The notes under the pieces are model-generated. The model ran no database searches, was not told where the DNA came from, and saw nothing but the letters and a program-made list of their open reading frames with translations. Below, in pieces: positions 1,575 through 25,600 of a stretch of 64,000 nt of DNA. This DNA comes from Auanema rhodensis (taxonomy: Eukaryota; Animalia; Nematoda), in the NCBI GenBank assembly GCA_964057225.1, contig OZ059899.1:4402001-4466000 (forward strand), written 5' to 3'. Position 1 is the first letter of the stretch. Each line of letters begins with the position of its first letter. The translations under genes were made by a program, and so were the position numbers.

Positions 1575-1648
1575 ACATTCGACAAAGTTAATGACTGTGA
1601 GTTTGTTCAAACTTGAAGAACCTCTTAATCAAAAATTTTAGTTGTGAA

Positions 1649-1948
1649 TGTCGCTTCGGCGAAGGCATTCCGTGTGATAGTTTTCCGCTGAGATTCGAAT
1701 AACAAATAATCAGTGGTAGAATGCTTTATTAAAGAGAAAGTTAACAATATCAACAAAATATAGATCGTCTATACTCCGTTGAAGTAAGTTGAGGTATATC
1801 GTATTTTCCGATCCCAAAGATGAAGATATGGGAAGGCGGGCCGAAAAGTACAATCTGAAATAGACAAAGTAAAGGAAAACGATAAAAACAAAACTGAAAT
1901 GGAACAAAACATAGAAAAAAGGATAAAAAATAATCGCTAACCGCGACA
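1649..1948 (-). repeat. 3' LTR (300 bp) of the BEL/Pao element
   Basis: Bounded by 6 bp terminal inverted repeats TGTCGC...GCGACA. It begins exactly where the tRNA repeat breaks, has AATAAA on the minus strand at 1725-1730, and is preceded by a PPT-like tract. There is no partner LTR in the window to confirm it. Confidence 0.85.
1725..1730 (-). promoter_or_regulatory. Polyadenylation signal in the LTR
   Basis: AATAAA on the element's sense strand, ~76 nt before the LTR end. Confidence 0.55.
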
Positions 1949-1958
1949 CTGCCGCCGC
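1949..1958 (-). promoter_or_regulatory. Polypurine-tract-like plus-strand primer site
   Basis: Minus-strand GCGGCGGCAG directly abuts the TGT of the LTR, the expected position, and is G-rich like BEL/Pao PPTs. Confidence 0.65.
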
Positions 1959-1960
1959 AG

Positions 1961-2431
1961 CTAAGCCATTGGCCTTTTGCGACGTTGTCCGTCGCATAAT
2001 GACCCATGATGCTTATCAGAGTTGCATTTGTAGCAGTTAGTGCTACAGGGATGCTCGTGTAGAGCCGATAAGCATCGTAAGCATAATTTCAATTGATGAG
2101 CGCGGATTCCACGCTCCATAACAGATGAATAGATGGGACAATTGCCTGTGCGGTGACCATCAGTAGTCACTTGATCGCAAAATAGGCAGGTTTTCGTTGG
2201 TTGCGTTTGTAATCGAATCAAATTCTGATTTTCATTCAGAATTTTCATAGCTTCAGAAATGATTCTGAAGTGATTGTCCAAATACTCACTCATGTATTGG
2301 AACTTTCGATTTAAACGATTTTCAACGAGAACAAGAGTTCGAATAGAGGTAGGAAGGTTAGAATAGGAAGGATCTTTCAATTCTTCCTCAAAAGATGGTT
2401 CATTATGAACTGTAATAGAATCAGAATGCAT
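1961..2431 (-). CDS. 3' accessory ORF with Gag-like Cys/His zinc knuckles
   Basis: A predicted helical or coiled-coil segment is followed by CLFC-x6-H-x4-CP, LCLRCL-x3-H-x3-C and CYKC-x4-HH-x3-C, resembling the triple knuckles of BEL/Pao Gag. The first ATG is at 2431; the ORF-track start at 2464 is TTG. Confidence 0.8.
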   Translation of the reverse strand: MHSDSITVHNEPSFEEELKDPSYSNLPTSIRTLVLVENRLNRKFQYMSEYLDNHFRIISEAMKILNENQNLIRLQTQPTKTCLFCDQVTTDGHRTGNCPIYSSVMERGIRAHQLKLCLRCLSALHEHPCSTNCYKCNSDKHHGSLCDGQRRKRPMA

Positions 2432-2511
2432 GACAACAAATAATTTCAAAAATGAGGATAACAATGCTTATATAGTAAGATTTTTAAGGATAGTACGGAA
2501 TTAGTTCAATG

Positions 2512-5500
2512 TTAAAATCTTCTATCAAAACAAAGATTTCTAAGAATAAAGAAAAACTTGGTTGTTGTATCTATTATGATTTTAATAGTACGGAAAGCTG
2601 TGATCAAGAAAAAATAAATGGCTGGAGTACAACCTAGGTATCCCAAAAAACATATGATGATCAGAAAAACAACGCAGATTGAAAACATCATCCAGTGTTC
2701 TTTAAAAAGTTTCAAAAAAGGAATTATGTCAGGTATTATAACTGAATTCTGATTTGAATGAATTTCATTTGGTTCATTAGTAGATGAATTAAAATATAAT
2801 TGTCCCGTTACAATTATATCAATTTTTTCATGATTACATTTAGTATGACAAACTTCATTTATAATTGAATTATCTCTTTTAATATTGATATTTGTAATTT
2901 CATTGAAGGGTGAACATTTAATCATGAATACATCTTTTGAACACTCGATCGGTATCCATGTTTCTTTAGATGACATACAAGAAAACAATGCAGATGCACC
3001 CTGCCCACAGGAATAACATCCGGAGAGACTGATCAATAAGGGACGACAAGGTATATCATAGGAAAATGTATTACTGTCATATAAAAGTTCAGAATCAATT
3101 GAAACTGTAGTTTCATCAGACTGAGTTCGAAAAGTTAAGGATGTATCGGGTTTATAGATTGTCTCCGTGTTTGCCATATACGGAGGTAAAATATGAGAAA
3201 AATGTGTGAAATTATGTTGTGGACATATACAGCCAGCAACATCATTATTGATTTTGTTACAAGTACAATCGATAACCGTTGTACATCTTGAAAAATTGTC
3301 GGAAGTGTCTGCCTTCGAAATACATTGTACCATAAATGGAAAATGTGGTTCAACAGCAAAGATTTGATTGTTTGAAGCAACAAAATAATAATTATGAAGT
3401 GGAGTAGGAGGTTTGTCTTGTGTATTGATCGTCATATTGAAAAAAGAGTAATTCATCTTCAAATATGGTGGAATTGTGATATTATAAATATTTTTATCTT
3501 TAACAATATGTGTTGTAATTTCAAAAGTTGAAGATGTTGTCCAATCTTCACATTTAAACACTTCAAATATGTCGTCCGAAGTAGGTACATGTTCTAATTT
3601 GTAGAAAAGACAAGGGTTTTCCCAAAATGTCAAACAACGCCATATATGTGCTGAAGACCGGACACATTTGGATTGTGTTGGATAATTATATGGTTCGAAT
3701 TCAGAAATACGAGAGCGATGATTCATAGTTTCACAAGTTTGATCACAAGATCCCATATGAGCACATCGAAAATCAACAGTTAGTTTAGGCAAAGTAGCCT
3801 TTGTAAAAAATTTTGTGGTTTTCTTACATTCATAACTTGTATATAATTTTCGAATTTGAATATAACCAATAGAATGATTTTTAAATTTTATATCCAGGCA
3901 TAAATCTTTAACTCCAGGAGAAAAAACTATTTGATCACTATATTGGTGATAACATTGAGTACGATTCAGACAATGTGTAGAAACCGAATGAATAACGTGA
4001 TGATCGGTACAAGCAGTAGCATTATTAATCAGAAATATCGTTAGTATACTGATAATTGATAATCGAGAACCTCTTTTCCAAAATGGAGGATATAATTTAG
4101 GTTCTATATGTGGAATATTCTCAGATGAAGTTGGAGGAGGTTCAATAACTCCTAATTCAATATCATTCTGTTCCGGAGTATGAGGTCTAAGTGTGAAAAA
4201 AGAAGATATGTAACGAATAGTATTAGACCAGGAATTATATCGATATTGATGGAATCCTATGCGTATACAACAACAAAGGATGCCAAATAAACAACAAAGT
4301 GGTAAGAACAATGACCACATGGCAAGATGAGGAGCACAATGTGGGTTTCCAAGCAAATGTATGGATAAAAACTTTGCCTCATCACATACTACAGAATTTG
4401 CAGATGCTACGGGTAAAAATATCGATATTATTGTAAAAATTAAAATTGCAGACGTCATTGCTGATTTGAAATTCTTTCGCGAAGCGTATGTGATGTGATC
4501 CCGTAAAGGTAAGGTGCGAACACGTTTTTCGTTTGTTTCAGTAGATGGTTTTACGTCGTTTTGGTCAATGGTAGGCAAAATTATGGTTTGTTTTGCTTTA
4601 CTTGTGTTTTTCTTTTGTAATTTTTTACGATTATCGTCAGGCGTATGACCTGGACCCCATAATTGTAATTCAGCTTCTTCCTCAAGGATCGGATTATGTA
4701 TCGAAGAAATTTTGGACGTAGGTATGTAAATTTTTTGAGGATTATTAATATCTATTGGTTCAGGACATGTAACCACATTGTTCGTTTCATGGATTGAAGG
4801 TACAGGTGAGTTTGATCTTATAATATATTCCTGTATTGGTTGAGCATCAAGGTTCATCATATCCGAAGCAGATCCTACCTTCAAAGACAATGAAGTGTCT
4901 TCGGAAGGAGTAGATCGAGGAATTGATGTCATATCAGGTAAAACACTTCGTAATTCAAGTGGATATAGATGATTTAAGGAACGAGATATGATGTTCCCAG
5001 CTGGAGTGAGAACTTTAGCTGTACGAATGAATCCATCAGAACTACTTATAAGTTCTGTGATTCGACCAAGTTTCCATTGACCACGAGGTAAGTTATCGTT
5101 ATGTATAACTACAATTTCACCAATATTAGGTTTATTGGCATTTGCTGAAGGTTGTTTTCGGGAATGTTTGTATATATCACGAATATATATCAAATATTCT
5201 GTTTGAAATTTATCCCAAAACATCGTAGCTGCATCAGAAGTAAGTTGTAAAGTTTCTAATGCTTGTTCAACGTTTTGTATTACAGGAATATCAATGGAAT
5301 TATTATAAACTCGAGAACCACAATCATCCGGTAGGGAAAGAACAAGACCAGGCGAAATGAAATCGACAGGACGAATAGGTACGTGATTTATATTATTTGG
5401 ATCTGGATGTGTTAAAGGCCTTGTGTTAATGACTGCTTCAATTTTGACAATTAAAGTTAATAATTCATCAAATGTTAATTTATTTCTTTGTATTGCCTTT

Positions 5501-6043
5501 TTCATTGCATTTTTAGTAATTCCCACCATTCTTTCCCAAGAACCTCCTTTCCATGGAGACTTAGGTGTGTTAAAGAGCCAATTTATGTTATTTTTGGCTA
5601 GATGGACTACAATATCAGCTGGGGTGAAATTAAATTCAGCTGATTTTTGTATTGTCTCAATTAATTGAGCTCCGAGAATAAAATTACCCCCACAATCACT
5701 TCGCATTGTGGTTGGTAAACCTCGTCGGGCTATGAAACGAGTGAAAGCGTTCATAAATGAAGTCGCTGTTTGATCATAGACCATTTCAAGATGAATGGCA
5801 CGTATGGTTAAGCAAGTAAAAAGACATACATAGACCTTATGTCCACTTTTAAGCATAATAGGTCCAAATAAGTCGCAACCAGTGTTAAGAAATGGTTTAG
5901 TTAATATCACTCTATCTTTAGGCAATGAAAGCATATCAGGAGTGCCATATGGTAAAGATTGATATTTATTGCATAAATGACATTTCTTTAAAGTTTGTTT
6001 TATAATTGCTGCAGCGCGAGCAATAAAATAAGTTTGACGAAAA
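2512..6043 (-). CDS. C-terminal part of the BEL/Pao polyprotein: integrase + linker + envelope (reduced Gn, phlebovirus G2/Gc-like class II fusogen)
   Basis: Zn-finger remnant CHLC; DDE core GCDLFGP / RSDCGGNF / PWKGGSWERMVG; INTRPL; BEL-type IN tail FWDKFQTEYL...WKLGRI...RSLNHLYPLE (ends ~4952). Hydrophobic signal/TM segments follow. Gc starts at NATA|C (~4011) with RCAHMGSC, CLFY, FKCEDW and LSGCYSCGQGA, and ends in a C-terminal TM. There are no stops across ~1175 codons and no native start. Confidence 0.92.
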
Positions 6044-7562
6044 CATCCATCATAGTGGAAGAACAAACACCAGTTACTGCTAAAAAGGTACGCTCCTCTA
6101 ATTCAAATAAAAATAAGAAAAATAAAAATAAAAACTCAAGCAAATCGGACGCATCTCTCTCTCTGTCCATCCCTGAACCAACAGTTTCACCTTCAGTAGC
6201 CACTACTAGTGCAGGCGGTTTACAAACTTTTAAAAACATAGTTTCTGATCTCTTCAATCGTTCACCAAAAGATCGAAACTTGAACACCAGCCACACGAAT
6301 AGATACTCGTCGGTTCCAAACATTAATTTATCTCCCATACAACCACCCGAACATACACATCTTGCTATTACTGATAACCAAACTTCAACCCCAATTTTAC
6401 CAAATACAACAACAGGAAGTTCAAAAGCACCAAACCAACCCAGCCGCTCAGTACACACAACCCCTGTGTCTGAAAACTCATTAACAACAGGCAGAGTGAT
6501 AAAAATGCCATCTGCCCGTACAAGTAATATGGCAACTGAACCTTCTTTACCTGGGGCAGGGAAAACTACCATAGCGCAAGCCTTGTTATCACCCTACTGC
6601 CCAACTTATGATGGCAGTCGCAACTTTCGAGATTACACGGCTAAATTCAACCTATTTGCCAACGCTGTAGGTCTGGTAATCCCGGAGAGATTAGCCCTCC
6701 TACCTTTGCTTCTTAAAAACGAAGCAGCGGAAGAAGCGTACAGCAAGTACCTGAACAATTAAAAACCACCGGTTCATGGAATGACCTGTTAAGAGCTTTA
6801 ACATCTAAGCTGTGTCCTGAATATAATCAGGACCCCGCGCTGATCAATCTCCAAAATACAACCCAAGGGGATCTGACAATTGACGCTTACGCTCAATCAC
6901 TGAGAACGATTGCACTAAGCGCTTTTGCCACGGATGACCCTCACAAAGATCACATATTAAGATCAACTTTCCTCAGAGGACTGAAAAATACTCTGAAACC
7001 AGCTGTGATTCGAGCGAAGCCAAAATCCTTCACGGATGCGATTGAGGCTGCTCGCTGGGAAGAATCAATAATGAACCAGACAACAGACACGCAGTCCATG
7101 CTAGTCAATGCTGTAAACAAAGCACTAGCTCCTTTCGCGCGCACAAACGAGAGACGAGATAACCGAAATTTTGACCGTAATCATCCACGTGATAACCAAA
7201 ACAATAAAAATTATCATAATTATCAAAATTATCAGAAAAATAAAAACTTTTCAAAATATAATAACAACCAAAATCGTAACGGCTCTTTTGCTAATTATCG
7301 CCGTAACAATAATTATGAACGAAATTCGGGACGATTTAATAACAACTGGCATTCAAACAATTTTAATCCTTCAAACAATAATAGAAGAGGAAGGACTAAT
7401 GAACATAACGGACAAAGAAGAATCCATTTTAACAATCAAAGAGATCAATCAAGAGGACGAGATAGAAGCACACCACGAATTAACTCTGTGACCCTTTCAC
7501 CGTTATCACTAACGGTTGTAATGGCAATCACAGTAGCAATTCTCCTGCCATGTGTAACTTCA
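6044..7562 (+). pseudogene. gag: gag (S/T/P-rich N-terminus, retrotransposon capsid, Asn/Arg-rich tail, env signal peptide) with a 1-nt frameshift at ~6740
   Basis: Frame 1 CPTYDGSRNFRDYTAKFNLFANA...LLKNEAAEEAY continues in frame 3 from 6741 as QQVPEQLKTTGSWNDLLRALTSKL...TTQGDLTIDAYAQSLRTIA...FLRGLKNTLKPAVIRAKPKSFTDAIEAARWEE. This matches Ty3/gypsy capsid hallmarks (PxFxG, W..L...L, MHR-like Q...I..Y...L, F..GL, P.S...AI..A). Confidence 0.82.
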
Positions 7563-10500
7563 TATCAAATTTGCACAAAAGCAACTGGAGGAGCCTTATT
7601 AGTTCCACCAGTAGTAAAGAAATGTAAATTAACAGAAACAAATCATGTGCTACGTACACAAATCCATCTATACACGCGAAACCACACGGCACACGAGTGG
7701 GACGCGTGGCGCTGCTCGAAGGAAGTACACAAGCTGTGTGTACGCGATTTGTTATTTCTCCGCGACACAAACAGAACAATCGATGAGGTGCAGCCTATAG
7801 CGGCGCACGAGTGCAGGCAGGCGATTCGCGATCGCAAATGGAATAACATGGAGCTGGAGAGAATCGATAGTATAGCACAAGCAACCCCAGAGCCCTCCTA
7901 TGATCCGGCGCGCGCGTTTAGCCGCGACGAGTGCGAGGAGCGGCCGCGTTTAGTACTAGAGCGCGGAGTCATGACCCGCATGCCCGATGATACAATATTA
8001 TCCAATTTAATACTAAACACTGAAGGTTGTAGTGCTCATCATGGTAATTGCAAATCAAATACATCAATAATTATATGGGATCCCCAAACATCGGATTCCC
8101 GTTGTAATTATATTGATATGCATTACTACGATGCTATAATAAGCAAAGAAACTATTTTGATTCCAAGTACACAATCAGCGCTTATCCTTTCGAGTAAAAT
8201 AACACCAAAACCAATTGCATCCTGCTTTAGACAACCAGCATTCCATACAACATCAGGAAATTATATAACATTCCCCAAATATCCTAATGATAACAATATC
8301 ACACTCCTAATTGAACGAGAATTTAAGAAATTGCTGTTCAAAAGACCTAAACGCGCAACTTCTACAAAATGCTCATTCCCATTCGATCAGGATAGAATAA
8401 ATGAAGTTGAAGATTTTGAAACGTACACGCTTCGAATTTGCCAATATCCATTTTTAATACCACTTATGAGTAATCCAGGAATTACACAAATTATTCCTCT
8501 AATTAAAGGAAGACGTATGGTAGACACTACATATTCCTTGAAAGAATGGATAATAGCCCATCGTGAAAATTTTGAATTTTTCTTTAAAATTCAAATTTAT
8601 GAGAAATCTTTAAGACATTTTCTCAAACAATATGATTTCCGTGATAAAGACGAAGCCATTTTACAATATGTTGCTCAAAGAGAATTAGCTTTAGCTACTA
8701 AAGCTGGAATATCTTATTTAACATCCAGGCAACTTCTTCAACAAATATCAGATCGTTTGACCGTTATTGAATTTGATCGGTTAATTCGTACAAAAGAAGG
8801 CACTTATCGAGAACGTGATGAAACTATTGCTCTTGATTTAGCCAATACACCAGTTATAATTGAAGACAAATTAACAGTTCCATCAAGACAAGAAATATTA
8901 AAAGCATTCGTAAAAATGCCACCAATAAGGAAACAATTATTAACTGATCAAGAAGAAAGAAACAGCAAATTTATAAAAGATACAATTGACCTTGTACATG
9001 AGCTAAAAACTCTCGTTACGCTTAGAAGAAATAAAACAGCAGCTGATATTGATGACATAAAATTTATAAACCTTCCATCTTCACGAATGTTTGTACTTGA
9101 TACGGATAAATTGTTCTATGACATCAAGAATAATTTTGGAATACCAATTGGACCACATCCCAAGCTCATAGAGCCCAACAACATCTCTAAGGACTTATTA
9201 TTGGAAATATTTTTACCACTACTAAACGATAATATTTTGCCTAATACATCTAGTAGAATATCATCAAAACAGTTAAAAAGATTAATGACAGAGAAAATCC
9301 AACTTAAATCGTTGCAAACCACGACGCGTGCGCCAAGCAACGCGGCAGGCGGCGCGGCCGAGATGGCAGCCCTCCCTATAATCGATCGTGAGGCGCTGAT
9401 CACAACAGATCCCGCAATACTGCCGCAAACATCTACAAGCCCTCGGGCAGCCGCAGCAACTACCGCGCGCGCGCCTTCATCGATGGCCCAGCCCGAAACA
9501 ACGGCGCGCCATACAACCGCAACAACAACCGCGCGCGCAACAATATCGACCCGCGCGCCGCCAACTACTATTCTCTACGCTGTTCATCAAGATCAACAAA
9601 TTCCAATAATGGAAGAAACTACATATACACCAATATCTTTGATTCGTAAACATAGAGCATCATCAACGCCTACAGCCACCGATATAGAGTCTGTACAGGC
9701 TAATGCTCAATACATTGCCACAAAAGTTGACTCTGAACAACAGTTTCGCCAAAACATAACAAGCAGAATTGCACAAGATCATTTGCAATATGCTACAACT
9801 ATGATTCAAGAAGAACTGCAGAAACATTTTAAAGAGTCATACGAATCAATATGTGAGATCCAAAATAGGTATCTTGAATTATGGAGATCAATTTTACAAA
9901 TTGAACCAACAATAGCTATGCGTACAATACTGGGAAGAGAAGATATAGCCGCAAGATTTGTAGGCAGCGAGATATTACATATACATGTTTGCCCGGTAGT
10001 ATTACAAAAGACTATATATCACAATCACACTGTGAATGGCACATGTTATCTCGAAACCCCAGTATTAACACAAGAAGGACAATTACTGTTTGCCGCACCA
10101 GGATCGAAAGACCTATTACCTCATGGTAAAGAAATTAACTGTGATCATGTACCAACAGACGTATGGTCAACAGACGGTGAATGGAAAGGAATTAATGGTA
10201 CTGTAGACGTCAGTCTCATATCCATGTGGGACGGACTTCATCATGAAAAGATCACGCCATTAAAATTCACCGGAGCACACTTATACACCAACTTATCATC
10301 TCGAGTGTACTCAATGACAACAGCCATTGCTTATGGTGCTAGTTTAGCATCGATTCGTCAAAATCACGTGCTTCACACAATTCATCATGATCCAAAAATA
10401 TCATCAGCATTCAGCATATTGAAGAAAAGTAGTGATTACATCTCCAAAGCCAATGAATTCACCAAAAGTACATGGAATTCATTTGTCGATACAATAGCAG

Positions 10501-10642
10501 GAACGATTGAACGAACACTCATCACTATCGGAGCAATTACAATTATTGTAGTTATACTGATCGTACTAGCCTTCGTTGCGAAAATATATTTCTTCAAACC
10601 AATAGGCATGCAAGTTATGCATATCGAACTCCGAGATCAAAC
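6044..10642 (+). mobile_element. Internal fragment of a second LTR retroelement (Ty3/gypsy-type gag + class III env), truncated at both ends
   Basis: Capsid motifs are followed by a viral-type glycoprotein. No LTR, PBS or pol is visible. It is bounded by the BEL element on the left and the satellite on the right. Confidence 0.8.
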
Positions 10643-10661
10643 CAGATTTGCGCTAGCTTAA
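7563..10661 (+). CDS. env: Envelope glycoprotein, class III fusogen-like (herpesvirus gB / chuvirus G related), in frame with the gag C-terminus
   Basis: Signal peptide LTVVMAITVAILLPCVTS|YQIC is followed by a Cys-rich ectodomain (WRCSK, HECRQA, GC..HGNC....IIW) and furin site RPKR at 8343-8354. The gB-like core is ICEIQN...ILQIEPTIAMRTILGREDIAARFVGSEILHIHVCPVV (9891-10001), then GTCY. There are multiple N-x-S/T sequons and a TM at ~10516-10580. The last 5 codons and the stop come from the satellite. Confidence 0.8.
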   Translation, partial: YQICTKATGGALLVPPVVKKCKLTETNHVLRTQIHLYTRNHTAHEWDAWRCSKEVHKLCVRDLLFLRDTNRTIDEVQPIAAHECRQAIRDRKWNNMELERIDSIAQATPEPSYDPARAFSRDECEERPRLVLERGVMTRMPDDTILSNLILNTEGCSAHHGNCKSNTSIIIWDPQTSDSRCNYIDMHYYDAIISKETILIPSTQSALILSSKITPKPIASCFRQPAFHTTSGNYITFPKYPNDNNITLLIEREFKKLLFKRPKRATSTKCSFPFDQDRINEVEDFETYTLRICQYPFLIPLMSNPGITQIIPLIKGRRMVDTTYSLKEWIIAHRENFEFFFKIQIYEKSLRHFLKQYDFRDKDEAILQYVAQRELALATKAGISYLTSRQLLQQISDRLTVIEFDRLIRTKEGTYRERDETIALDLANTPVIIEDKLTVPSRQEILKAFVKMPPIRKQLLTDQEERNSKFIKDTIDLVHELKTLVTLRRNKTAADIDDIKFINLPSSRMFVLDTDKLFYDIKNNFGIPIGPHPKLIEPNNISKDLLLEIFLPLLNDNILPNTSSRISSKQLKRLMTEKIQLKSLQTTTRAPSNAAGGAAEMAALPIIDREALITTDPAILPQTSTSPRAAAATTARAPSSMAQPETTARHTTATTTARATISTRAPPTTILYAVHQDQQIPIMEETTYTPISLIRKHRASSTPTATDIESVQANAQYIATKVDSEQQFRQNITSRIAQDHLQYATTMIQEELQKHFKESYESICEIQNRYLELWRSILQIEPTIAMRTILGREDIAARFVGSEILHIHVCPVVLQKTIYHNHTVNGTCYLETPVLTQEGQLLFAAPGSKDLLPHGKEINCDHVPTDVWSTDGEWKGINGTVDVSLISMWDGLHHEKITPLKFTGAHLYTNLSSRVYSMTTAIAYGASLASIRQNHVLHTIHHDPKISSAFSILKKSSDYISKANEFTKSTWNSFVDTIAGTIERTLITIGAITIIVVILIVLAFVAKIYFFKPIGMQVMHIELRDQTRFALA

Positions 10662-13600
10662 AAATGCACCGAGATATCAACTGATATAAGTTCACACTTA
10701 TATTCTCGATTTTCACCCTGAAGAATTAATTTTTTCGTTGAATAACATTGTCCATCGTCTTTGCCTTGAAAAAAGGAATCTAAAAACATCTACTTTTTGC
10801 TAAATGATTTTGAAATTTTTCGAAAAAATTTTTGTCAAAATGTTTTTGGAAGCAATCTTGAGTGTACATGGAAACTCAACATACACTAATGCATCATTTT
10901 TCAAACAATCATAACTGATTTTTGTATTAAGCGTTTCTCAATGTAGTATAGTGCATTCGATGCGGATTTTTAAGCTGCGTCGATCTATGTTATCAGATTT
11001 GCGCTAGCTTAAAAATGCACCGAGATATCAACTGATATAAGTTCACACATATATCCTCGATTTTCACCCTGAAGAATGAATTTTTTCGTTGAATAACATT
11101 GTCCATCGTCTTTGTCTTGAAAAAAGGAATCTAAAAACATCTACTTTTTGCTAAATTATTTTGAAATTTTTCGAAAAAATTTTTGTCAAAATGTTTTTTG
11201 AAGCAATGTTGAGTGTACATGGAAACTCAACATACACTAATGCATCATTTTTCAAACGATCATAACTGATTTTTGTATTGAGCGTTTCTCAATGTAGTAT
11301 AGTGCATTCGATGCGGATTTTTAAGCTGCTTCGATCTGTGTTATCAGATTTGCGCTAGCTTAAAAATGCACCGAGATATCAACTGATATAAGTTCACACT
11401 TATATTCTCGATTTTCACCCTGAAGAATGAATTTTTTCGTTGAATAACATTGTCCATCGTCTTTGCCTTGAAAAAAGGAATCTAAAAACATCTACTTTTT
11501 GCTAAATGATTTTGAAATTTTTCGAAAAAATTTTTGTCAAAATGTTTTTGGAAGCAATCTTGAGTGTACATGGAAACTCAACATACACTAATGCATCATT
11601 TTTCAAACAATCATAACTGATTTTTGTATTAAGCGTTTCTCAATGTAGTATAGTGCATTCGATGCGGATTTTTAAGCTGCGTCGATCTATGTTATCAGAT
11701 TTGCGCTAGCTTAAAAATGCACCGAGATATCAACTGATATAAGTTCACACATATATCCTCGATTTTCACCCTGAAGAATGAATTTTTTCGTTGAATAACA
11801 TTGTCCATCGTCTTTGTCTTGAAAAAAGGAATCTAAAAACATCTACTTTTTGCTAAATTATTTTGAAATTTTTCGAAAAAATTTTTGTCAAAATGTTTTT
11901 TGAAGCAATGTTGAGTGTACATGGAAACTCAACATACACTAATGCATCATTTTTCAAACGATCATAACTGATTTTTGTATTGAGCGTTTCTCAATGTAGT
12001 ATAGTGCATTCGATGCGGATTTTTAAGCTGCTTCGATCTGTGTTATCAGATTTGCGCTAGCTCAAAAATGCACCGAGATATCAACTGATATAAGTTCACA
12101 CTTATATTCTCGATTTTCACCCTGAAGAATGAATTTTTTCGTTGAATAACATTGTCCATCGTCTTTGTCTTGAAAAAAGGAATCTAAAAACATCTACTTT
12201 TTGCTAAATTATTTTGAAATTTTTCGAAAAAATTTTTGTCAAAATGTTTTTTGAAGCAATGTTGAGTGTACATGGAAACTCAACATACACTAATGCATCA
12301 TTTTTCAAACGATCATAACTGATTTTTGTATTGAGCGTTTCTCAATGTAGTATAGTGCATTCGATGCGGATTTTTAAGCTGCTTCGATCTGTGTTATCAG
12401 ATTTGCGCTAGCTCAAAAATGCACCGAGATATCAACTGATATAAGTTCACACTTATATTCTCGATTTTCACCCTGAAGAATGAATTTTTTCGTTGAATAA
12501 CATTGTCCATCGTCTTTGTCTTGAAAAAAGGAATCTAAAAACATCTACTTTTTGCTAAATTATTCTGAAATTTTTCGAAAAAATTTTTGTCAAAATGTTT
12601 TTTGAAGCAATGTTGAGTGTACATGGAAACTCAACATACACTAATGCATCATTTTTCAAACGATCATAACTGATTTTTGTATTAAGCGTTTCTCAATGTA
12701 GTATAGTGCATTCGATGCGGATTTTTAAGCTGCGTCGATCCGTGTTATCAGATTTGCGCTAGCTTAAAAATGCACCGAGATATCAACAGATATATGTTCA
12801 CACTTATATCCTCGATTTTCACCCTGAAGAATTAATTTTTTCGTTGAAAAATATTGTCCATCGTCTTTGCCTTGAAAAAAGGAATCTAAAAACATCTACT
12901 TTTTGCTAAATTTATTTGAAATTTTTCGAAAAAATTTTTGTCAAAATGTTTTTGGAAGCAATGTTGAGTGTACATGGAAACTCAACATACACTAATGCAT
13001 CATTTTTCAAACGATCATAACTGATTTTTGTATTAAGCGTTTCTCAATGTAGTATAGTGCATTCGATGCGGATTTTCAAGCTGCGTCGATCTGTGTTATC
13101 AGATTTGCGCTAGCTTAAAAATGCACCGAGATATCAACTGATATAAGTTCACACTTGTATCCTCGATTTTCACCCTGAAGAATTAATTTTTTCGTTGAAT
13201 AACATTGTCCATCGTCTTTGCCTTGAAAAAAGGAATCTAAAAACATCTACTTTTTGCTAAATTATTCTGAAATTTTTCGAAAAAATTTTTGTCAAAATGT
13301 TTTTTGAAGCAATGTTGAGTGTACATGGAAACTCAACATACACTAATGCATCATTTTTCAAACGATCATAACTGATTTTTGTATTAAGCGTTTCTCAATG
13401 TAGTATAGTGCATTCGATGCGGATTTTTAAGCTGCGTCGATCCGTGTTATCAGATTTGCGCTAGCTTAAAAATGCACCGAGATATCAACAGATATATGTT
13501 CACACTTATATCCTCGATTTTCACCCTGAAGAATTAATTTTTTCGTTGAAAAATATTGTCCATCGTCTTTGCCTTGAAAAAAGAAATCTAAAAACATCTA

Positions 13601-16600
13601 CTTTTTGCTAAATTTATTTGAAATTTTTCGAAAAAATTTTTGTCAAAATGTTTTTGGAAGCAATGTTGAGTGTACATGGAAACTCAACATACACTAATGC
13701 ATCATTTTTCAAACGATCATAACTGATTTTTGTATTGAGCGTTTCTCAATGTAGTATAGTGCATTCAATGCGGATTTTTAAGCTGCTTCGATCTGTGTTA
13801 TCAGATTTGCGCTAGCTCAAAAATGCACCGAGATATCAACTGATATAAGTTCACACATATATCCTCGATTTTCACCCTGAAGAATGAATTTTTTCGTTGA
13901 ATAACATTGTCCATCGTCTTTGTCTTGAAAAAAGGAATCTAAAAACATCTACTTTTTGCTAAATTATTTTGAAATTTTTCGAAAAAATTTTTGTCAAAAT
14001 GTTTTTTGAAGCAATGTTGAGTGTACATGGAAACTCAACATACACTAATGCATCATTTTTCAAACGATCATAACTGATTTTTGTATTAAGCGTTTCTCAA
14101 TGTAGTATAGTGCATTCGATGCGGATTTTTAAGCTGCGTCGATCCGTGTTATCAGATTTGCGCTAGCTTAAAAATGCACCGAGATATCAACAGATATATG
14201 TTCACACTTATATCCTCGATTTTCACCCTGAAGAATTAATTTTTTCGTTGAAAAATATTGTCCATCGTCTTTGCCTTGAAAAAAGGAATCTAAAAACATC
14301 TACTTTTTGCTAAATTATTTTGAAATTTTTCGAAAAAATTTTTGTCAAAATGTTTTTGGAAGCAATGTTGAGTGTACATGGAAACTCAACATACACTAAT
14401 GCATCATTTTTCAAACGATCATAACTGATTTTTGTATTGAGCGTTTCTCAATGTAGTATAGTGCATTCGATGCGGATTTTTAAGCTGCTTCGATCTGTGT
14501 TATCAGATTTGCGCTAGCTCAAAAATGCACCGAGATATCAACTGATATAAGTTCACACTTATATTCTCGATTTTCACCCTGAAGAATGAATTTTTTCGTT
14601 GAATAACATTGTCCATCGTCTTTGTCTTGAAAAAAGGAATCTAAAAACATCTACTTTTTGCTAAATTATTTTGAAAATTTTCGAAAAAATTTTTGTCAAA
14701 ATGTTTTTTGAAGCAATGTTGAGTGTACATGGAAACTCAACATACACTAATGCATCATTTTTCAAACGATCATAACTGATTTTTGTATTGAGCGTTTCTC
14801 AATGTAGTATAGTGCATTCGATGCGGATTTTTAAGCTGCTTCGATCTGTGTTATCAGATTTGCGCTAGCTCAAAAATGCACCGAGATATCAACTGATATA
14901 AGTTCACACTTATATTCTCGATTTTCACCCTGAAGAATGAATTTTTTCGTTGAATAACATTGTCCATCGTCTTTGTCTTGAAAAAAGGAATCTAAAAACA
15001 TCTACTTTTTGCTAAATTATTCTGAAATTTTTCGAAAAAATTTTTGTCAAAATGTTTTTTGAAGCAATGTTGAGTGTACATGGAAACTCAACATACACTA
15101 ATGCATCATTTTTCAAACGATCATAACTGATTTTTGTATTAAGCGTTTCTCAATGTAGTATAGTGCATTCGATGCGGATTTTCAAGCTGCGTCGATCTGT
15201 GTTATCAGATTTGCGCTAGCTTAAAAATGCACCGAGATATCAACTGATATAAGTTCACACTTGTATCCTCGATTTTCACCCTGAAGAATTAATTTTTTCG
15301 TTGAATAACATTGTCCATCGTCTTTGCCTTGAAAAAAGGAATCTAAAAACATCTACTTTTTGCTAAATGATTTTGAAATTTTTCGAAAAAATTTTTGTCA
15401 AAATGTTTTTGGAAGCAATGTTGAGTGTACATGGAAACTCAACATACACTAATGCATCATTTTTCAAACGATCATAACTAATTTTTGTATTAAGCGTTTC
15501 TCAATGTAGTATAGTGCATTCGATGCGGATTTTTAAGCTGCGTCGATCCGTGTTATCAGATTTGCGCTAGCTTAAAAATGCACCGAGATATCAACTGATA
15601 TAAGTTCACACTTACATTCTCGATTTTCACCCTGAAGAATCAATTTTTTCGTTGAATAACATTGTCCATCGTCTTTGCCTTGAAAAAGGAATCTAAAAAC
15701 ATCTACTTTTTGCTAAATTATTTTGAAATTTTCCGAAAAAATTTTTGTCAAAATGTTTTTGGAAGCAATGTTGAGTGTACATGGAAAATCAACATACACT
15801 AATGCATCATTTTTCAAACGATCATAACTGATTTTTGTATTAAGCGTTTCTCAATGTAGTATAGTGCATTCGATGCGGATTTTCAAGCTGCGTCGATCCG
15901 TGTTATCAGATTTGCGCTAGCTTAAAAATGCACCGAGATATCAACTGATATAAGTTCACACTTACATTCTCGATTTTCACCCTGAAGAATCAATTTTTTC
16001 GTTGAATAACATTGTCCATCGTCTTTGCCTTGAAAAAAGGAATCTAAAAACATCTACTTTTTGCTAAATTATTTTGAAATTTTCCGAAAAAATTTTTGTC
16101 AAAATGTTTTTGGAAGCAATGTTGAGTGTACATGGAAACTCAACATACACTAATGCATCATTTTTCAAACGATCATAACTAATTTTTGTATTAAGCGTTT
16201 CTCAATGTAGTATAGTGCATTCGATGCGGATTTTTAAGCTGCGTCGATCCGTGTTATCAGATTTGCGCTAGCTTAAAAATGCACCGAGATATCAACTGAT
16301 ATAAGTTCACACTTACATTCTCGATTTTCACCCTGAAGAATCAATTTTTTCGTTGAATAACATTGTCCATCGTCTTTGCCTTAAAAAAAGGAATCTAAAA
16401 ACATCTACTTTTTGCTAAATTATTTTGAAATTTTCCGAAAAAATTTTTGTCAAAATGTTTTTGGAAGCAATGTTGAGTGTACATGGAAAATCAACATACA
16501 CTAATGCATCATTTTTCAAACGATCATAACTGATTTTTGTATTAAGCGTTTCTCAATGTAGTATAGTGCATTCGATGCGGATTTTTAAGCTGCGTCGATC

Positions 16601-19600
16601 CGTGTTATCAGATTTGCGCTAGCTTAAAAATGCACCGAGATATCAACTGATATAAGTTCACACTTACATTCTCGATTTTCACCCTGAAGAATGAATTTTT
16701 TCGTTGAATAACATTGTCCATCGTCTTTGCCTTGAAAAAAGGAATCTAAAAACATCTACTTTTTGCTAAATTATTTTGAAATTTTTCAAAAAAATTTTTG
16801 TCAAAATGTTTTTGGAAGCAATGTTGAGTGTACATGGAAACTCAACATACACTAATGCATCATTTTTCAAACGATCATAACTAATTTTTGTATTAAGCGT
16901 TTCTCAATGTAGTATAGTGCATTCGATGCGGATTTTTAAGCTGCGTCGATCCGTGTTATCAGATTTGCGCTAGCTTAAAAATGCACCGAGATATCAACTG
17001 ATATAAGTTCACACTTACATTCTCGATTTTCACCCTGAAGAATCAATTTTTTCGTTGAATAACATTGTCCATCGTCTTTGCCTTGAAAAAAGGAATCTAA
17101 AAACATCTACTTTTTGCTAAATTATTTTGAAATTTTCCGAAAAAATTTTTGTCAAAATGTTTTTGGAAGCAATGTTGAGTGTACATGGAAACTCAACATA
17201 CACTAATGCATCATTTTTCAAACGATCATAACTGATTTTTGTATTAAGCGTTTCTCAATGTAGTATAGTGCATTCGATGCGGATTTTTAAGCTGCGTCGA
17301 TCTATGTTATCAGATTTGCGCTAGCTTAAAAATGCACCGAGATATCAACTGATATAAGTTCACACTTACATTCTCGATTTTCACCCTGAAGAATGAATTT
17401 TTTCGTTGAATAACATTGTTCATCGTCTTTGCCTTGAAAAAAGGAATCTAAAAACATCTACTTTTTGCTAAATTATTTTGAAATTTTTCAAAAAAATTTT
17501 TGTCAAAATGTTTTTGGAAGCAATGTTGAGTGTACATGGAAACTCAACATACACTAATGCATCATTTTTCAAACGATCATAACTAATTTTTGTATTAAGC
17601 GTTTCTCAATGTAGTATAGTGCATTCGATGCGGATTTTTAAGCTGCGTCGATCCGTGTTATCAGATTTGCGCTAGCTTAAAAATGCACCGAGATATCAAC
17701 TGATATAAGTTCACACTTACATTCTCGATTTTCACCCTGAAGAATCAATTTTTTCGTTGAATAACATTGTCCATCGTCTTTGCCTTGAAAAAAGGAATCT
17801 AAAAACATCTACTTTTTGCTAAATTATTTTGAAATTTTCCGAAAAAATTTTTGTCAAAATGTTTTTGGAAGCAATGTTGAGTGTACATGGAAACTCAACA
17901 TACACTAATGCATCATTTTTCAAACGATCATAACTGATTTTTGTATTAAGCGTTTCTCAATGTAGTATAGTGCATTCGATGCGGATTTTTAAGCTGCGTC
18001 GATCTATGTTATCAGATTTGCGCTAGCTTAAAAATGCACCGAGATATCAACTGATATAAGTTTACACATATATCCTCGATTTTCACCCTGAAGAATGAAT
18101 TTTTTCGTTGAATAACATTGTCCATCGTCTTTGCCTTGAAAAAAGGAATCTAAAAACATCTACTTTTTGCTAAATTATTTTGAAATTTTTCAAAAAAATT
18201 TTTGTCAAAATGTTTTTGGAAGCAATGTTGAGTGTACATGGAAACTCAACATACACTAATGCATCATTTTTCAAACGATCATAACTAATTTTTGTATAAA
18301 GCGTTTCTCAATGTAGTATAGTGCATTCGATGCGGATTTTTAAGCTGCGTCGATCTATGTTATCAGATTTGCGCTAGCTTAAAAATGCACCGAGATATCA
18401 ACTGATATAAGTTTACACATATATCCTCGATTTTCACCCTGAAGAATGAATTTTTTCGTTGAATAACATTGTCCATCGTCTTTGCCTTGAAAAAAGGAAT
18501 CTAAAAACATCTACTTTTTGCTAAATTATTTTGAAATTTTTCGAAAAAATTTTTGTCAAAATGTTTTTGGAAGCAATGTTGAGTGTACATGGAAACTCAA
18601 CATACACTAATGCATCATTTTTCAAACGATCATAACTAATTTTTGTATTAAGCGTTTCTCAATGTAGTATAGTGCATTCGATGCGGATTTTTAAGCTGCG
18701 TCGATCTGTGTTATCAGATTTGCGCTAGCTTAAAAATGCACCGAGATATCAACTGATATAAATTCACACATATATCCTCGATTTTCACCCTGAAGAATTA
18801 ATTTTTTCGTTGAATAACATTGTCCATCGTCTTTGCCTTGAAAAAAGAAATCTAAAAACATATACTTTTTGCTAAATTATTTTGAAATTTTCCGAAAAAA
18901 TTTTTGTCAAAATGTTTTTGGAAGCAATGTTGAGTGTACATGGAAACTCAACATACACTAATGCATCATTTTTCAAACGATCATAACTGATTTTTGTATT
19001 AAGCGTTTCTCAATGTAGTATAGTGCATTCGATGCGGATTTTCAAGCTGCGTCGATCTGTGTTATCAGATTTGCGCTAGCTTAAAAATGCACCGAGATAT
19101 CAACTGATATAAGTTCACACTTGTATCCTCGATTTTCACCCTGAACAATTATTTTTTTCGTTGAATAACATTGTCCATCGTCTTTGCCTTGAAAAAAAGA
19201 AATCTAAAAACATCTACTTTTTGCTAAATTATTTTGAAATTTTCCGAAAAAATTTTTGTCAAAATGTTTTTGGAAGCAATGTTGAGTGTACATGGAAACT
19301 CAACATACACTAATGCATCATTTTTCAAACGATCATAACTGATTTTGTATTAAGCGTTTCTCAATGTAGTATAGTGCATTCGATGCGGATTTTTAAGCTG
19401 CGTCGATCCGTGTTATCAGATTTGCGCTAGCTTAAAAATGCACCGAGATATCAACAGATATATGTTCACACTTATATCCTCGATTTTCACCCTGAAGAAT
19501 TAATTTTTTCGTTGAAAAATATTGTCCATCGTCTTTGCCTTGAAAAAAGGAATCTAAAAACATCTACTTTTTGCTAAATTATTTTGAAATTTTTTGAAAA

Positions 19601-22600
19601 AATTTTTGTCAAAATGTTTTTGGAAGCAATGTTGAGTGTACATGGAAACTCAACATACACTAATGCATCATTTTTCAAACGATCATAACTGATTTTTGTA
19701 TTAAGCGTTTCTCAATGTAGTATAAGGCATTCGATGCGGATTTTTAAGCTGCGTCGATCTGTGTTATCAGATTTGCGCTAGCTTAAAAATGCACCGAGAT
19801 ATCAACTGATATAAATTCACACATATATCCTCGATTTTCACCCTGAAGAATTAATTTTTTCGTTGAATAACATTGTCCATCGTCTTTGCCTTGAAAAAAG
19901 AAATCTAAAAACATCTACTTTTTGCTAAATTATTTTGAAATTTTCCGAAAAAATTTTTGTCAAAATGTTTTTGGAAGCAATGTTGAGTGTACATGGAAAC
20001 TCAACATACACTAATGCATCATTTTTCAAACGATCATAACTAATTTTTGTATTAAGCGTTTCTCAATGTAGTATAGTGCATTCGATGCGGATTTTCAAGC
20101 TGCGTCGATCTGTGTTATCAGATTTGCGCTAGCTTAAAAATGCACCGAGATATCAACTGATATAAGTTCACACTTGTATCCTCGATTTTCACCCTGAACA
20201 ATTATTTTTTTCGTTGAATAACATTGTCCATCGTCTTTGCCTTGAAAAAAAGAAATCTAAAAACATCTACTTTTTGCTAAATTATTTTGAAATTTTCCGA
20301 AAAAATTTTTGTCAAAATGTTTTTGGAAGCAATGTTGAGTGTACATGGAAACTCAACATACACTAATGCATCATTTTTCAAACGATCATAACTGATTTTG
20401 TATTAAGCGTTTCTCAATGTAGTATAGTGCATTCGATGCGGATTTTTAAGCTGCGTCGATCCGTGTTATCAGATTTGCGCTAGCTTAAAAATGCACCGAG
20501 ATATCAACAGATATATGTTCACACTTATATCCTCGATTTTCACCCTGAAGAATTAATTTTTTCGTTGAAAAATATTGTCCATCGTCTTTGCCTTGAAAAA
20601 AGGAATCTAAAAACATCTACTTTTTGCTAAATTATTTTGAAATTTTTTGAAAAAATTTTTGTCAAAATGTTTTTGGAAGCAATGTTGAGTGTACATGGAA
20701 ACTCAACATACACTAATGCATCATTTTTCAAACGATCATAACTGATTTTTGTATTAAGCGTTTCTCAATGTAGTATAAGGCATTCGATGCGGATTTTTAA
20801 GCTGCGTCGATCTATGTTATCAGATTTGCGCTAGCTTAAAAATGCACCGAGATATCAACTGATATAAGTTTACACATATATCCTCGATTTTCACCCTGAA
20901 GAATGAATTTTTTCGTTGAATAACATTGTCCATCGTCTTTGCCTTGAAAAAAGGAATCTAAAAACATCTACTTTTTGCTAAATTATTTTGAAATTTTTCG
21001 AAAAAATTTTTGTCAAAATGTTTTTGGAAGCAATGTTGAGTGTACATGGAAACTCAACATACACTAATGCATCATTTTTCAAACGATCATAACTAATTTT
21101 TGTATTAAGCGTTTCTCAATGTAGTATAGTGCATTCGATGCGGATTTTTAAGCTGCGTCGATCTGTGTTATCAGATTTGCGCTAGCTTAAAAATGCACCG
21201 AGATATCAACTGATATAAGTTCACACTTATATTCTCGATTTTCACCCTGAAGAATTAATTTTTTCGTTGAATAACATTATCCATCGTCTTTGCCTTGAAA
21301 AAAGAAATCTAAAAACATCTACTTTTTGCTAAATTATTTTGAAATTTTTCGAAAAAATTTTTGTCAAAATGTTTTTGGAAGCAATGTTGAGTGTACATGG
21401 AAACTCAACATACACTAATGCATCATTTTTCAAACGATCATAACTGATTTTGTATTAAGCGTTTCTCAATGTAGTATAGTGCATTCGATGCGGATTTTTA
21501 AGCTGCGTCGATCCGTGTTATCAGATTTGCGCTAGCTTAAAAATGCACCGAGATATCAACAGATATATGTTCACACTTATATCCTCGATTTTCACCCTGA
21601 AGAATTAATTTTTTCGTTGAAAAATATTGTCCATCGTCTTTGCCTTGAAAAAAGGAATCTAAAAACATCTACTTTTTGCTAAATTATTTTGAAATTTTTT
21701 GAAAAAATTTTTGTCAAAATGTTTTTGGAAGCAATGTTGAGTGTACATGGAAACTCAACATACACTAATGCATCATTTTTCAAACGATCATAACTGATTT
21801 TTGTATTAAGCGTTTCTCAATGTAGTATAAGGCATTCGATGCGGATTTTTAAGCTGCGTCGATCTATGTTATCAGATTTGCGCTAGCTTAAAAATGCACC
21901 GAGATATCAACTGATATAAGTTTACACATATATCCTCGATTTTCACCCTGAAGAATGAATTTTTTCGTTGAATAACATTGTCCATCGTCTTTGCCTTGAA
22001 AAAAGGAATCTAAAAACATCTACTTTTTGCTAAATTATTTTGAAATTTTTCGAAAAAATTTTTGTCAAAATGTTTTTGGAAGCAATGTTGAGTGTACATG
22101 GAAACTCAACATACACTAATGCATCATTTTTCAAACGATCATAACTAATTTTTGTATTAAGCGTTTCTCAATGTAGTATAGTGCATTCGATGCGGATTTT
22201 TAAGCTGCGTCGATCTGTGTTATCAGATTTGCGCTAGCTTAAAAATGCACCGAGATATCAACTGATATAAGTTCACACTTATATTCTCGATTTTCACCCT
22301 GAAGAATTAATTTTTTCGTTGAATAACATTATCCATCGTCTTTGCCTTGAAAAAAGAAATCTAAAAACATCTACTTTTTGCTAAATTATTTTGAAATTTT
22401 TCAAAAAAATTTTTGTCAAAATGGTTTTGGAAGCAATGTTGAGTGTACATGGAAACTCAACATACACTAATGCATCATTTTTCAAACGATCATAACTGAT
22501 TTTTGTATTAAGCGTTTCTCAATGTAGTATAGTGCATTCGATGCGGATTTTTAAGCTGCGTCGATCCGTGTTATCAGATTTGCGCTAGCTTAAAAATGCA

Positions 22601-25600
22601 CCGAGATATCAACTGATATAAGTTCACACTTACATTCTCGATTTTCACCCTGAAGAATTAATTTTTTCGTTGAATAACATTGTCCATCGTCTTTGCCTTG
22701 AAAAAAGGAATCTAAAAACATCTACTTTTTGCTAAATTATTTTGAAATTTTTCAAAAAAATTTTTGTCAAAATGTTTTTGAAGCAATGTTGAGTGTACAT
22801 GGAAACTCAACATACACTAATGCATCATTTTTCAAACGATCATAACTAATTTTTGTATTAAGCGTTTCTCAATGTAGTATAGTGCATTCGATGCGGATTT
22901 TTAAGCTGCGTCGATCTGTGTTATCAGATTTGCGCTAGCTTAAAAATGCACCGAGATATCAACTGATATAAATTCACACATATATCCTCGATTTTCACCC
23001 TGAAGAATTAATTTTTTCGTTGAATAACATTGTCCATCGTCTTTGCCTTGAAAAAAGGAATCTAAAAACATCTACTTTTTGCTAAATTATTTTGAAATTT
23101 TTCGAAAAAATTTTTGTCAAAATGTTTTTGGAAGCAATGTTGAGTGTACATGGAAACTCAACATACACTAATGCATCATTTTTCAAACGATCATAACTGA
23201 TTTTTGTATTAAGCGTTTCTCAATGTAGTATAGTGCATTCGATGCGGATTTTCAAGCTGCGTCGATCTGTGTTATCAGATTTGCGCTAGCTTAAAAATGC
23301 ACCGAGATATCAACTGATATAAGTTCACACTTGTATCCTCGATTTTCACCCTGAAGAATTAATTTTTTCGTTGAAAAATATTGTCCATCGTCTTTGCCTT
23401 GAAAAAAGGAATCTAAAAACATCTACTTTTTGCTAAATTATTTTGAAATTTTTTGAAAAATTTTTTGTCAAAATGTTTTTGGAAGCAATGTTGAGTGTAC
23501 ATGGAAACTCAACATACACTAATGCATCATTTTTCAAACGATCATAACTAATTTTTGTATTAAGCGTTTCTCAATGTAGTATAGTGCATTCGATGCGGAT
23601 TTTTAAGCTGCGTCGATCCGTGTTATCAGATTTGCGCTAGCTTAAAAATGCACCGAGATATCAACTGATATAAGTTCACACTTACATTCTCGATTTTCAC
23701 CCTGAAGAATCAATTTTTTCGTTGAATAACATTGTCCATCGTCTTTGCCTTGAAAAAAGGAATCTAAAAACATCTACTTTTTGCTAAATTATTTTGAAAT
23801 TTTTCAAAAAAATTTTTGTCAAAATGTTTTTGGAAGCAATGTTGAGTGTACATGGAAACTCAACATACACTAATGCATCATTTTTCAAACGATCATAACT
23901 GATTTTTGTATTAAGCGTTTCTCAATGTAGTATAGTGCATTCGATGCGGATTTTTAAGCTGCGTCGATCTATGTTATCAGATTTGCGCTAGCTTAAAAAT
24001 GCACCGAGATATCAACTGATATAAGTTTACACATATATCCTCGATTTTCACCCTGAAGAATGAATTTTTTCGTTGAATAACATTGTCCATCGTCTTTGCC
24101 TTGAAAAAAGGAATCTAAAAACATCTACTTTTTGCTAAATTATTTTGAAATTTTTCAAAAAAATTTTTGTCAAAATGTTTTTGGAAGCAATGTTGAGTGT
24201 ACATGGAAACTCAACATACACTAATGCATCATTTTTCAAACGATCATAACTAATTTTTGTATAAAGCGTTTCTCAATGTAGTATAGTGCATTCGATGCGG
24301 ATTTTTAAGCTGCGTCGATCTATGTTATCAGATTTGCGCTAGCTTAAAAATGCACCGAGATATCAACTGATATAAGTTTACACATATATCCTCGATTTTC
24401 ACCCTGAAGAATGAATTTTTTCGTTGAATAACATTGTCCATCGTCTTTGCCTTGAAAAAAGGAATCTAAAAACATCTACTTTTTGCTAAATTATTTTGAA
24501 ATTTTTCGAAAAAATTTTTGTCAAAATGTTTTTGGAAGCAATGTTGAGTGTACATGGAAACTCAACATACACTAATGCATCATTTTTCAAACGATCATAA
24601 CTAATTTTTGTATTAAGCGTTTCTCAATGTAGTATAGTGCATTCGATGCGGATTTTTAAGCTGCGTCGATCTGTGTTATCAGATTTGCGCTAGCTTAAAA
24701 ATGCACCGAGATATCAACTGATATAAGTTCACACTTATATTCTCGATTTTCACCCTGAAGAATTAATTTTTTCGTTGAATAACATTATCCATCGTCTTTG
24801 CCTTGAAAAAAGAAATCTAAAAACATCTACTTTTTGCTAAATTATTTTGAAATTTTTCAAAAAAATTTTTGTCAAAATGTTTTTGGAAGCAATGTTGAGT
24901 GTACATGGAAACTCAACATACACTAATGCATCATTTTTCAAACGATCATAACTGATTTTTGTATTAAGCGTTTCTCAATGTAGTATAGTGCATTCGATGC
25001 GGATTTTTAAGCTGCGTCGATCCGTGTTATCAGATTTGCGCTAGCTTAAAAATGCACCGAGATATCAACTGATATAAGTTCACACTTACATTCTCGATTT
25101 TCACCCTGAAGAATTAATTTTTTCGTTGAATAACATTGTCCATCGTCTTTGCCTTGAAAAAAGGAATCTAAAAACATCTACTTTTTGCTAAATTATTTTG
25201 AAATTTTTCAAAAAAATTTTTGTCAAAATGTTTTTGGAAGCAATGTTGAGTGTACATGGAAACTCAACATACACTAATGCATCATTTTTCAAACGATCAT
25301 AACTAATTTTTGTATTAAGCGTTTCTCAATGTAGTATAGTGCATTCGATGCGGATTTTTAAGCTGCGTCGATCTGTGTTATCAGATTTGCGCTAGCTTAA
25401 AAATGCACCGAGATATCAACTGATATAAATTCACACATATATCCTCGATTTTCACCCTGAAGAATTAATTTTTTCGTTGAATAACATTGTCCATCGTCTT
25501 TGCCTTGAAAAAAGAAATCTAAAAACATCTACTTTTTGCTAAATTATTTTGAAATTTTCCGAAAAAATTTTTGTCAAAATGTTTTTGGAAGCAATGTTGA

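Follow-up and report, generated by a model that had tools for sequence, protein, structure and literature searches.

In the 64,000 nucleotides of Auanema rhodensis contig OZ059899.1 analyzed here (the window), a retroelement gag gene is followed directly by an envelope (env) gene, with no polymerase (pol) gene between them. This raises the question of what kind of element the piece comes from and where its pol would be expected. The piece is a gag-env fragment that lacks both ends. It very probably derives from a nematode element of the Ty3/gypsy group (Metaviridae) with the published GAG-ENV-POL order, and its envelope is predicted to be of class III and to resemble herpesvirus glycoprotein B (gB). 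The order capsid, Asn/Arg-rich tail, hydrophobic segment, env and transmembrane segment (TM) is directly visible, as are a frame break in the capsid and the truncation of both ends. In relatives, this order runs on into protease (PR), reverse transcriptase (RT), RNase H (RH) and integrase (IN).

Gene order in the window and in its relatives

The main open reading frame (ORF), 6717-10661 on the plus strand, encodes 1314 amino acids, comprising the C-terminal part of the capsid, the Asn/Arg-rich tail, a hydrophobic segment, env and the TM. The gag upstream of env is of the Ty3/gypsy type and the junction between the two is free of pol. The capsid matches in this ORF (PF03732 Retrotrans_gag, E 3e-4; PF19259 Ty3_capsid, E 4e-3) both score below the cut-off; despite these weak scores, relatives align across the gag-env junction. 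The gag tail, composed of 32% Asn and 18% Arg, is likely the RNA-binding equivalent of a nucleocapsid. Neither a zinc knuckle (CCHC) nor the protease motif D[ST]G[AS] was found in ORF 6717-10661, and tblastn with seven relatives detected no gypsy PR or RT in the window. Two segments of the ORF are hydrophobic, amino acids 257-287 and 1260-1298, the TM lying at about 1266-1294. Hydropathy, Pfam and tblastn thus agree with the first-pass annotation, made from the DNA letters, which had described a signal peptide and a type I glycoprotein behind the Asn/Arg tail with no pol in between.

That annotation had also placed gag and env in a single frame. This holds for the main ORF, which joins the C-terminal part of the capsid to env, and fails for the capsid that begins at 6595, which is split between 6717 and 6762. 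Its N-terminal part is located in ORF 5992-6762 and the remainder in the main ORF; in the alignment with the relative P0014, frame 1 is matched at 6601-6666 and frame 3 from 6741 onward. The window was compared with contigs, which drop rare forms, from 8 of 14 listed sequencing runs (seven DNA runs and X12, possibly RNA). At the frame break, the window differs from the contigs in all seven DNA runs, and the break therefore appears private to this copy or to the assembly.

The relatives consist of the best 150 of 274 cluster-representative matches at E 0.001, together with P0002 and P0003. The domain order in these 152 proteins, determined by probing them with stretches of P0001-P0003, served to class them. 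Pol follows env in one ORF in 50 of them, of which 21 are gag-env-pol and 29 env-pol; RT, RH and IN are all present in the same ORF in 12 of the 21. The remainder are 15 gag-env proteins without detected pol, 74 env fragments, two insert-only fragments and 11 proteins with pol before env. A Pfam scan of 19 chosen long relatives, including seven of the 11 pol-first ones, found 12 with gypsy-type pol after env or with gag-env lacking an intervening pol, and seven BEL/Pao polyproteins with env last. The nearest protein, P0003 from Auanema sp. JU1783, is colinear with the window from the capsid to the TM tail (45% and 55% identity in two blocks), and behind its TM follow an aspartic protease and the beginning of RT. 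No relatives were found in a metagenome scan.

A quick env tree of 45 rows, in which fragments and env-only rows were left out, groups the window's env with P0003 (100), then with P0010, P0014 and P0019 (98) and then with P0013 and P0016 (91; Shimodaira-Hasegawa approximate likelihood ratio test, SH-aLRT). None of the seven rows of this group has pol before env. Pol between gag and env, which the first-pass annotation had named as contrary evidence, was thus found in none of the six nearest relatives. Five of these six are named Auanema or Caenorhabditis proteins, which makes a rhabditid nematode the most likely host.

The end of the piece is abrupt. A satellite starts at 10643, 15 codons after the TM, and the ORF extends six codons into it before a stop. 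In six of the seven DNA runs, contigs leave the window at 10644 and extend 129-1930 bases beyond it; the listed piece of the seventh run reaches 10573. On the opposite side, the gag part continues upstream of 6041 into DNA absent from the window in four of the seven DNA runs (X3, X5, X6, X9), and the BEL/Pao piece that adjoins it on the minus strand continues past 6041 into DNA absent from the window in five. Among the pieces listed, none bridges junction 6041 or the satellite junction, in contigs that, as stated, drop rare forms. These independent continuations at 6041 and 10644 indicate that the gag-env piece is truncated at both ends in the window; the 5' truncation was not part of the first-pass annotation. 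The truncation arose either by real rearrangement or by assembly. No LTR (long terminal repeat) pair was found in 1600-10700, both ends of the copy being cut off. Lacking both LTRs and pol, and with a broken gag, the copy has no means of moving on its own. It represents either a relic within repeat-rich DNA or, in part, a chimera of the assembly.

The position of pol after env in the relatives and the contigs beyond the satellite junction together point to a truncated gag-env-pol element and not to one encoding gag and env only. The first-pass annotation had offered both. A non-autonomous family that borrows pol from another element would explain why no gypsy pol is present in the window, and 15 of the 152 relatives likewise have gag-env without detected pol. 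It is nevertheless very unlikely here, since the copy stops at the satellite junction and not at a natural end, since contigs reach up to 1930 bases further in six of the seven DNA runs, and since the nearest relative has PR and RT behind its TM. The other proposal, a gag-env-pol polyprotein with a class III env and a signal/stop-transfer topology, is supported by the relatives, the fold prediction and the sequencing runs.

Env-carrying LTR elements are usually arranged gag-pol-env, and 11 of the 152 relatives do have pol before env, so that pol might have been lost from an ordinary element by an in-frame deletion. Such a loss is hardly credible and can be regarded as largely refuted: the gag-env junction is colinear with that of P0003, it is spanned by single or overlapping contigs without a joint that would point to extra DNA between the two genes, and the pol-first relatives are far off in the env tree, the seven scanned ones being BEL/Pao. 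It is just as improbable that the window holds one ambisense element, made of the plus-strand gag-env and the minus-strand integrase/env ORF (2512-6102). The two meet head to head at 6041, and 1649-1948 resembles an LTR end, but the minus-strand ORF belongs to BEL/Pao and has a class II env of its own, and the sides part at 6041 in the runs (BEL side in 5/7, gag side in 4/7), with no bridging piece among those listed.

Some points weigh against assigning the piece to a GAG-ENV-POL element. The position of pol in this very family is taken from the relatives. The 15 gag-env relatives without detected pol comprise some partial records, and may also include real gag-env-only ORFs. The capsid scores are below the Pfam cut-off, and the agreement of the env model with gB is modest (predicted template modeling score, pTM, 0.42; root-mean-square deviation, rmsd, 4.5-6.6). 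Finally, cleavage, topology and fusion are all predicted.

For an intact GAG-ENV-POL element, the anatomy described above and general knowledge of membrane polyproteins suggest the following topology. A single polyprotein would be made, with Gag folding in the cytosol. The internal signal would thread Env into the endoplasmic reticulum, and signal peptidase would free the Env N-terminus. With transfer stopped at the TM, Pol would be synthesized in the cytosol and stay attached to the Env tail until released by the protease of the element. This protease would likely also cut RIN/SV between Gag and the signal anchor, and furin cleavage of Env would fall between domain II and the large insert.

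In 35 of 37 relatives, env and PR are separated by a TM, and a hydrophobic segment of at least 2.0 directly precedes env in 21 of the 27 with gag and env. The motif [IV][NH][AS][VIL], which was derived from P0001-P0003, was sought in the other relatives; it precedes the signal in 7/27 and the protease in 9/31, compared with 1.8% of background windows (nominal p 4e-7 and 7e-9, values that overstate the enrichment since several positives are close kin). This lends some support to RINSV, a plausible protease site already suggested by the first-pass annotation; QVMHI, suggested with it, has no match to the boundary motif. Late-domain-like [LP]PxY motifs are not enriched in the env tails (2 of 37 relatives; 1.0 expected from shuffles). 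In P0013, P0016 and P0024, two protease-like stretches follow env (two to three stretches according to Pfam).

The predicted class III envelope and its insert

The envelope can be described, as a prediction, as a class III, gB-like fusogen. Of its class III Pfam matches, PF24664 (E 2e-13) is above the cut-off and PF00606 (E 8e-9) below it. The ectodomain was modeled from a 93-row alignment, with a mean predicted local distance difference test (pLDDT) value of 69.9 and a pTM of 0.42. The model has a confident, beta-rich N-terminal part, with pLDDT 84-97 in most 10-residue blocks of the domain I/II region, followed by a 76-residue helix (model residues 704-779) and a beta domain. This predicted order matches that of gB: beta-rich domains I/II, the long helix of domain III and the beta domain IV. 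In Foldseek searches, the best-ranked PDB entry is herpes gB (E 1.6e-11), out of 119 that match at E 0.001, and the top viral models include glycoproteins of Mono-Chu viruses as well as gB (E 5e-14), in agreement with the class III fold that the first-pass annotation had proposed. Structural alignment to gB with VIA gave a Z of 12.5 over 289 residues (rmsd 4.5), and a second alignment a Z of 12.3 over 427 residues spanning gB 114-722 (rmsd 6.4). Sequence-only matches to solved gB structures are weak, the best one having an E of 0.0014 (phmmer). Herpesvirus gB and the Mono-Chu virus glycoproteins (nyamivirus, chuvirus, rhabdo-like) are thus alike in predicted fold and domain order. They differ from the window's env in sequence (9-17% identity in the main rows), and the latter is located inside a retroelement polyprotein and carries a large insert between domains II and III.

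This insert was not noted in the first-pass annotation either. In this copy, 483 amino acids separate the two conserved env halves. Among the 84 relatives with both halves, the spacer ranges from 0 to 500 amino acids, reaching at least 100 in 28, at least 300 in eight and at least 450 in two. In comparison, it does not exceed 51 amino acids in any of the 11 pol-first relatives. The 29 long spacers (at least 100 amino acids, the window's included) fall into 15 groups without a BLAST link between groups. A furin motif is present in 20 of 29 long spacers and in 19 of 56 short ones, although long stretches match more often by chance.

The helical part of the insert has homologs in seven other proteins, all from Auanema sp. 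JU1783. Modeled alone from eight rows, it reached a pLDDT of 70 and a pTM of 0.68. Foldseek returned no fold match for this model at E 0.001. A wide structural aligner run against 48,161 chains gave a best Z of 4.1, and the matches in the Atlas scored at most 0.84. A profile built from the insert alignment recovered a single sequence, itself a member of that alignment. These blank searches do not show that the fold is new. No mention of env inserts was found in literature searches or in the covered text and supplementary tables of PMC13524379 (figures excluded), and they may have been noted already. The insert of about 480 amino acids, with a conserved helical domain and a Thr/Ala-rich stretch, may be the sole new feature of the element.

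That the insert serves in attachment or shielding is a conjecture, prompted by its location on the outer side of a fusogen and behind a furin motif. One may speculate further, with considerable doubt, that the post-furin loop of nematode gB-type envelopes is a hot spot for the capture of unrelated accessory modules. In this Auanema-like lineage, a helical domain of about 240-300 amino acids and undescribed fold, on a mucin-like stalk, might then be a built-in receptor-binding or shielding subunit, doing within one protein the job that gD and gH-gL do for herpes gB. Should such modules determine the range of hosts or tissues, they would illustrate how a class III fusogen can gain specificity without partner proteins. 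The helical domain is a small, expressible target for structure work.

Relation to published elements

Two kinds of nematode elements are close to the piece. BEL/Pao elements with a gB-like env after the integrase, the Ascaris Tas type named in the first-pass annotation, have a related class III env, and seven such polyproteins are present among the relatives. They differ in belonging to another gag and pol family, in having env last and in their short spacers (at most 51 amino acids). By Pfam, none of the BEL/Pao hallmark domains (DUF1759-type gag, Peptidase_A17 pol ahead of env) was found in the gag-env ORFs. Nematode endogenous retroviruses (NERV), on the other hand, reportedly carry gag-env-pro-pol as one continuous ORF.

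According to PMC13524379, the errantiviruses of Nematoda, Bryozoa and Platyhelminthes have a gB-type ENV only, arranged GAG-ENV-POL (Chary and Hayashi, eLife 2026), and 36 nematode elements are given in Supplementary file 1. The first-pass annotation had known the nematode gB-like env from BEL/Pao only and had suspected a poorly described lineage; on this account, the arrangement is instead the published norm. The same paper credits Sacco et al. 2022 (J Gen Virol 103:1739, doi 10.1099/jgv.0.001739) for the flipped order, env before pol in a nematode metavirus, and, as summarised there, this is the order of the NERV; it is probably also that of the element from which the present piece comes. 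Its screen table lists ENV-POL matches for both Auanema assemblies, and the curated list in Supplementary file 1 gave no match for an Auanema element.

The piece is like these nematode GAG-ENV-POL errantiviruses in its Ty3/gypsy capsid, predicted gB-type fold, predicted signal peptide and TM, and in having env directly behind gag, with pol expected after it. The cysteine spacing and short motifs of its domains I/II resemble the Nematoda_C1 rows, as judged by eye and not computed, and by the same comparison Clat_errantivirus_4 from Caenorhabditis latens is the closest of the 36 nematode rows. It differs in being truncated and frame-broken, and in its 483-residue insert, which has no mention in the text compared. 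Literature searches for this gene order led to PMC13524379 and to no other relevant paper. Since the gene order has already been published, what is gained here is one more member, a degraded one, of a known group.

Features of the window and neighboring sequences

Table 1. Coordinates, strand and basis of the features in and around the gag-env piece.
Feature	Position	Strand	Basis and remarks
3' half of a distinct BEL/Pao element, adjoining the gag-env piece in head-to-head orientation; not the pol of that piece	1649..6041	-	Pfam: integrase end, DUF5641, phlebovirus-G2-like env; small 3' ORF; 300-bp LTR-like end
Ser/Thr/Pro-rich gag N-terminal region, 5'-truncated	6041..6594	+	Frame of ORF 5992-6762; true start and 5' LTR missing
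Ty3/gypsy-type capsid with frame break between 6717 and 6762	6595..7100	+	Weak Pfam Retrotrans_gag and Ty3_capsid; P0014 alignment
Asn/Arg-rich gag tail without zinc knuckle, ending in RINSV	7143..7484	+	Composition; same tail in P0003
Internal signal peptide (predicted)	7488..7562	+	Hydropathy 2.3 over amino acids 257-287
Env N-terminal half, predicted gB domains I/II, beta-rich, 10 Cys	7563..8291	+	Model pLDDT; aligned to herpes gB
Furin-type motif RPKR (amino acids 543-546), the only one in the ORF	8343..8354	+	Motif search; predicted cleavage; P0003 has RTKR at the corresponding position
Lineage-specific, mostly helical insert domain	8364..9311	+	Homologs in seven Auanema sp. JU1783 proteins; model pLDDT 70, pTM 0.68
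Thr/Ala/Pro-rich, predicted disordered, mucin-like stretch	9312..9686	+	21% T, 19% A, 10% P; pLDDT < 50
Env C-terminal half: 76-residue helix (domain III), beta domain IV, membrane-proximal helices (predicted)	9675..10511	+	PF24664, PF00606; phmmer matches to gB structures
Transmembrane anchor (predicted stop-transfer)	10512..10598	+	Hydropathy 3.2
Start of cytoplasmic tail, cut by satellite	10599..10642	+	P0003 continues about 100 amino acids to the protease
351-bp satellite, 152 copies, in place of the expected pol and 3' LTR	10643..64000	.	Repeat analysis

The satellite copies match each other at 97% and have a GC content of 31%. At both junctions of the gag-env piece, 6041 and 10643-10644, one or two bases are common to the two sides. 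This fits end-joining deletions, which are typical of polymerase theta repair in nematodes, and also read chimeras. In several runs, loose contig ends are found at 7200-7234 and 7971-8026, suggesting further diverged gag-env families in the same organisms. The possible RNA run X12, whose RNA nature is a guess, contributed four short, low-depth contigs and no evidence of expression.

The minus-strand neighbor is a Cer7/Atlas-like BEL/Pao element. Its LTR-like end (1649-1948, 300 bp) has TGTCG...CGACA termini and is preceded by a Cys/His-rich ORF of 168 amino acids (1961-2467). Its env, in ORF 2512-6102, is phlebovirus-G2-like and thus class II (PF07245, E 2e-43), so that two enveloped retroelements with different fusogen classes adjoin in the window. 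Within 2008-2464, 455 bases are skipped by the contigs in three of four runs, which suggests that some BEL copies are without most of the small 3' ORF. The LTR-like end joins directly, at 1649, to a tandem array that occupies positions 1-1648 and contains seven tRNA-Ala(TGC) genes with a period of 248 bp.

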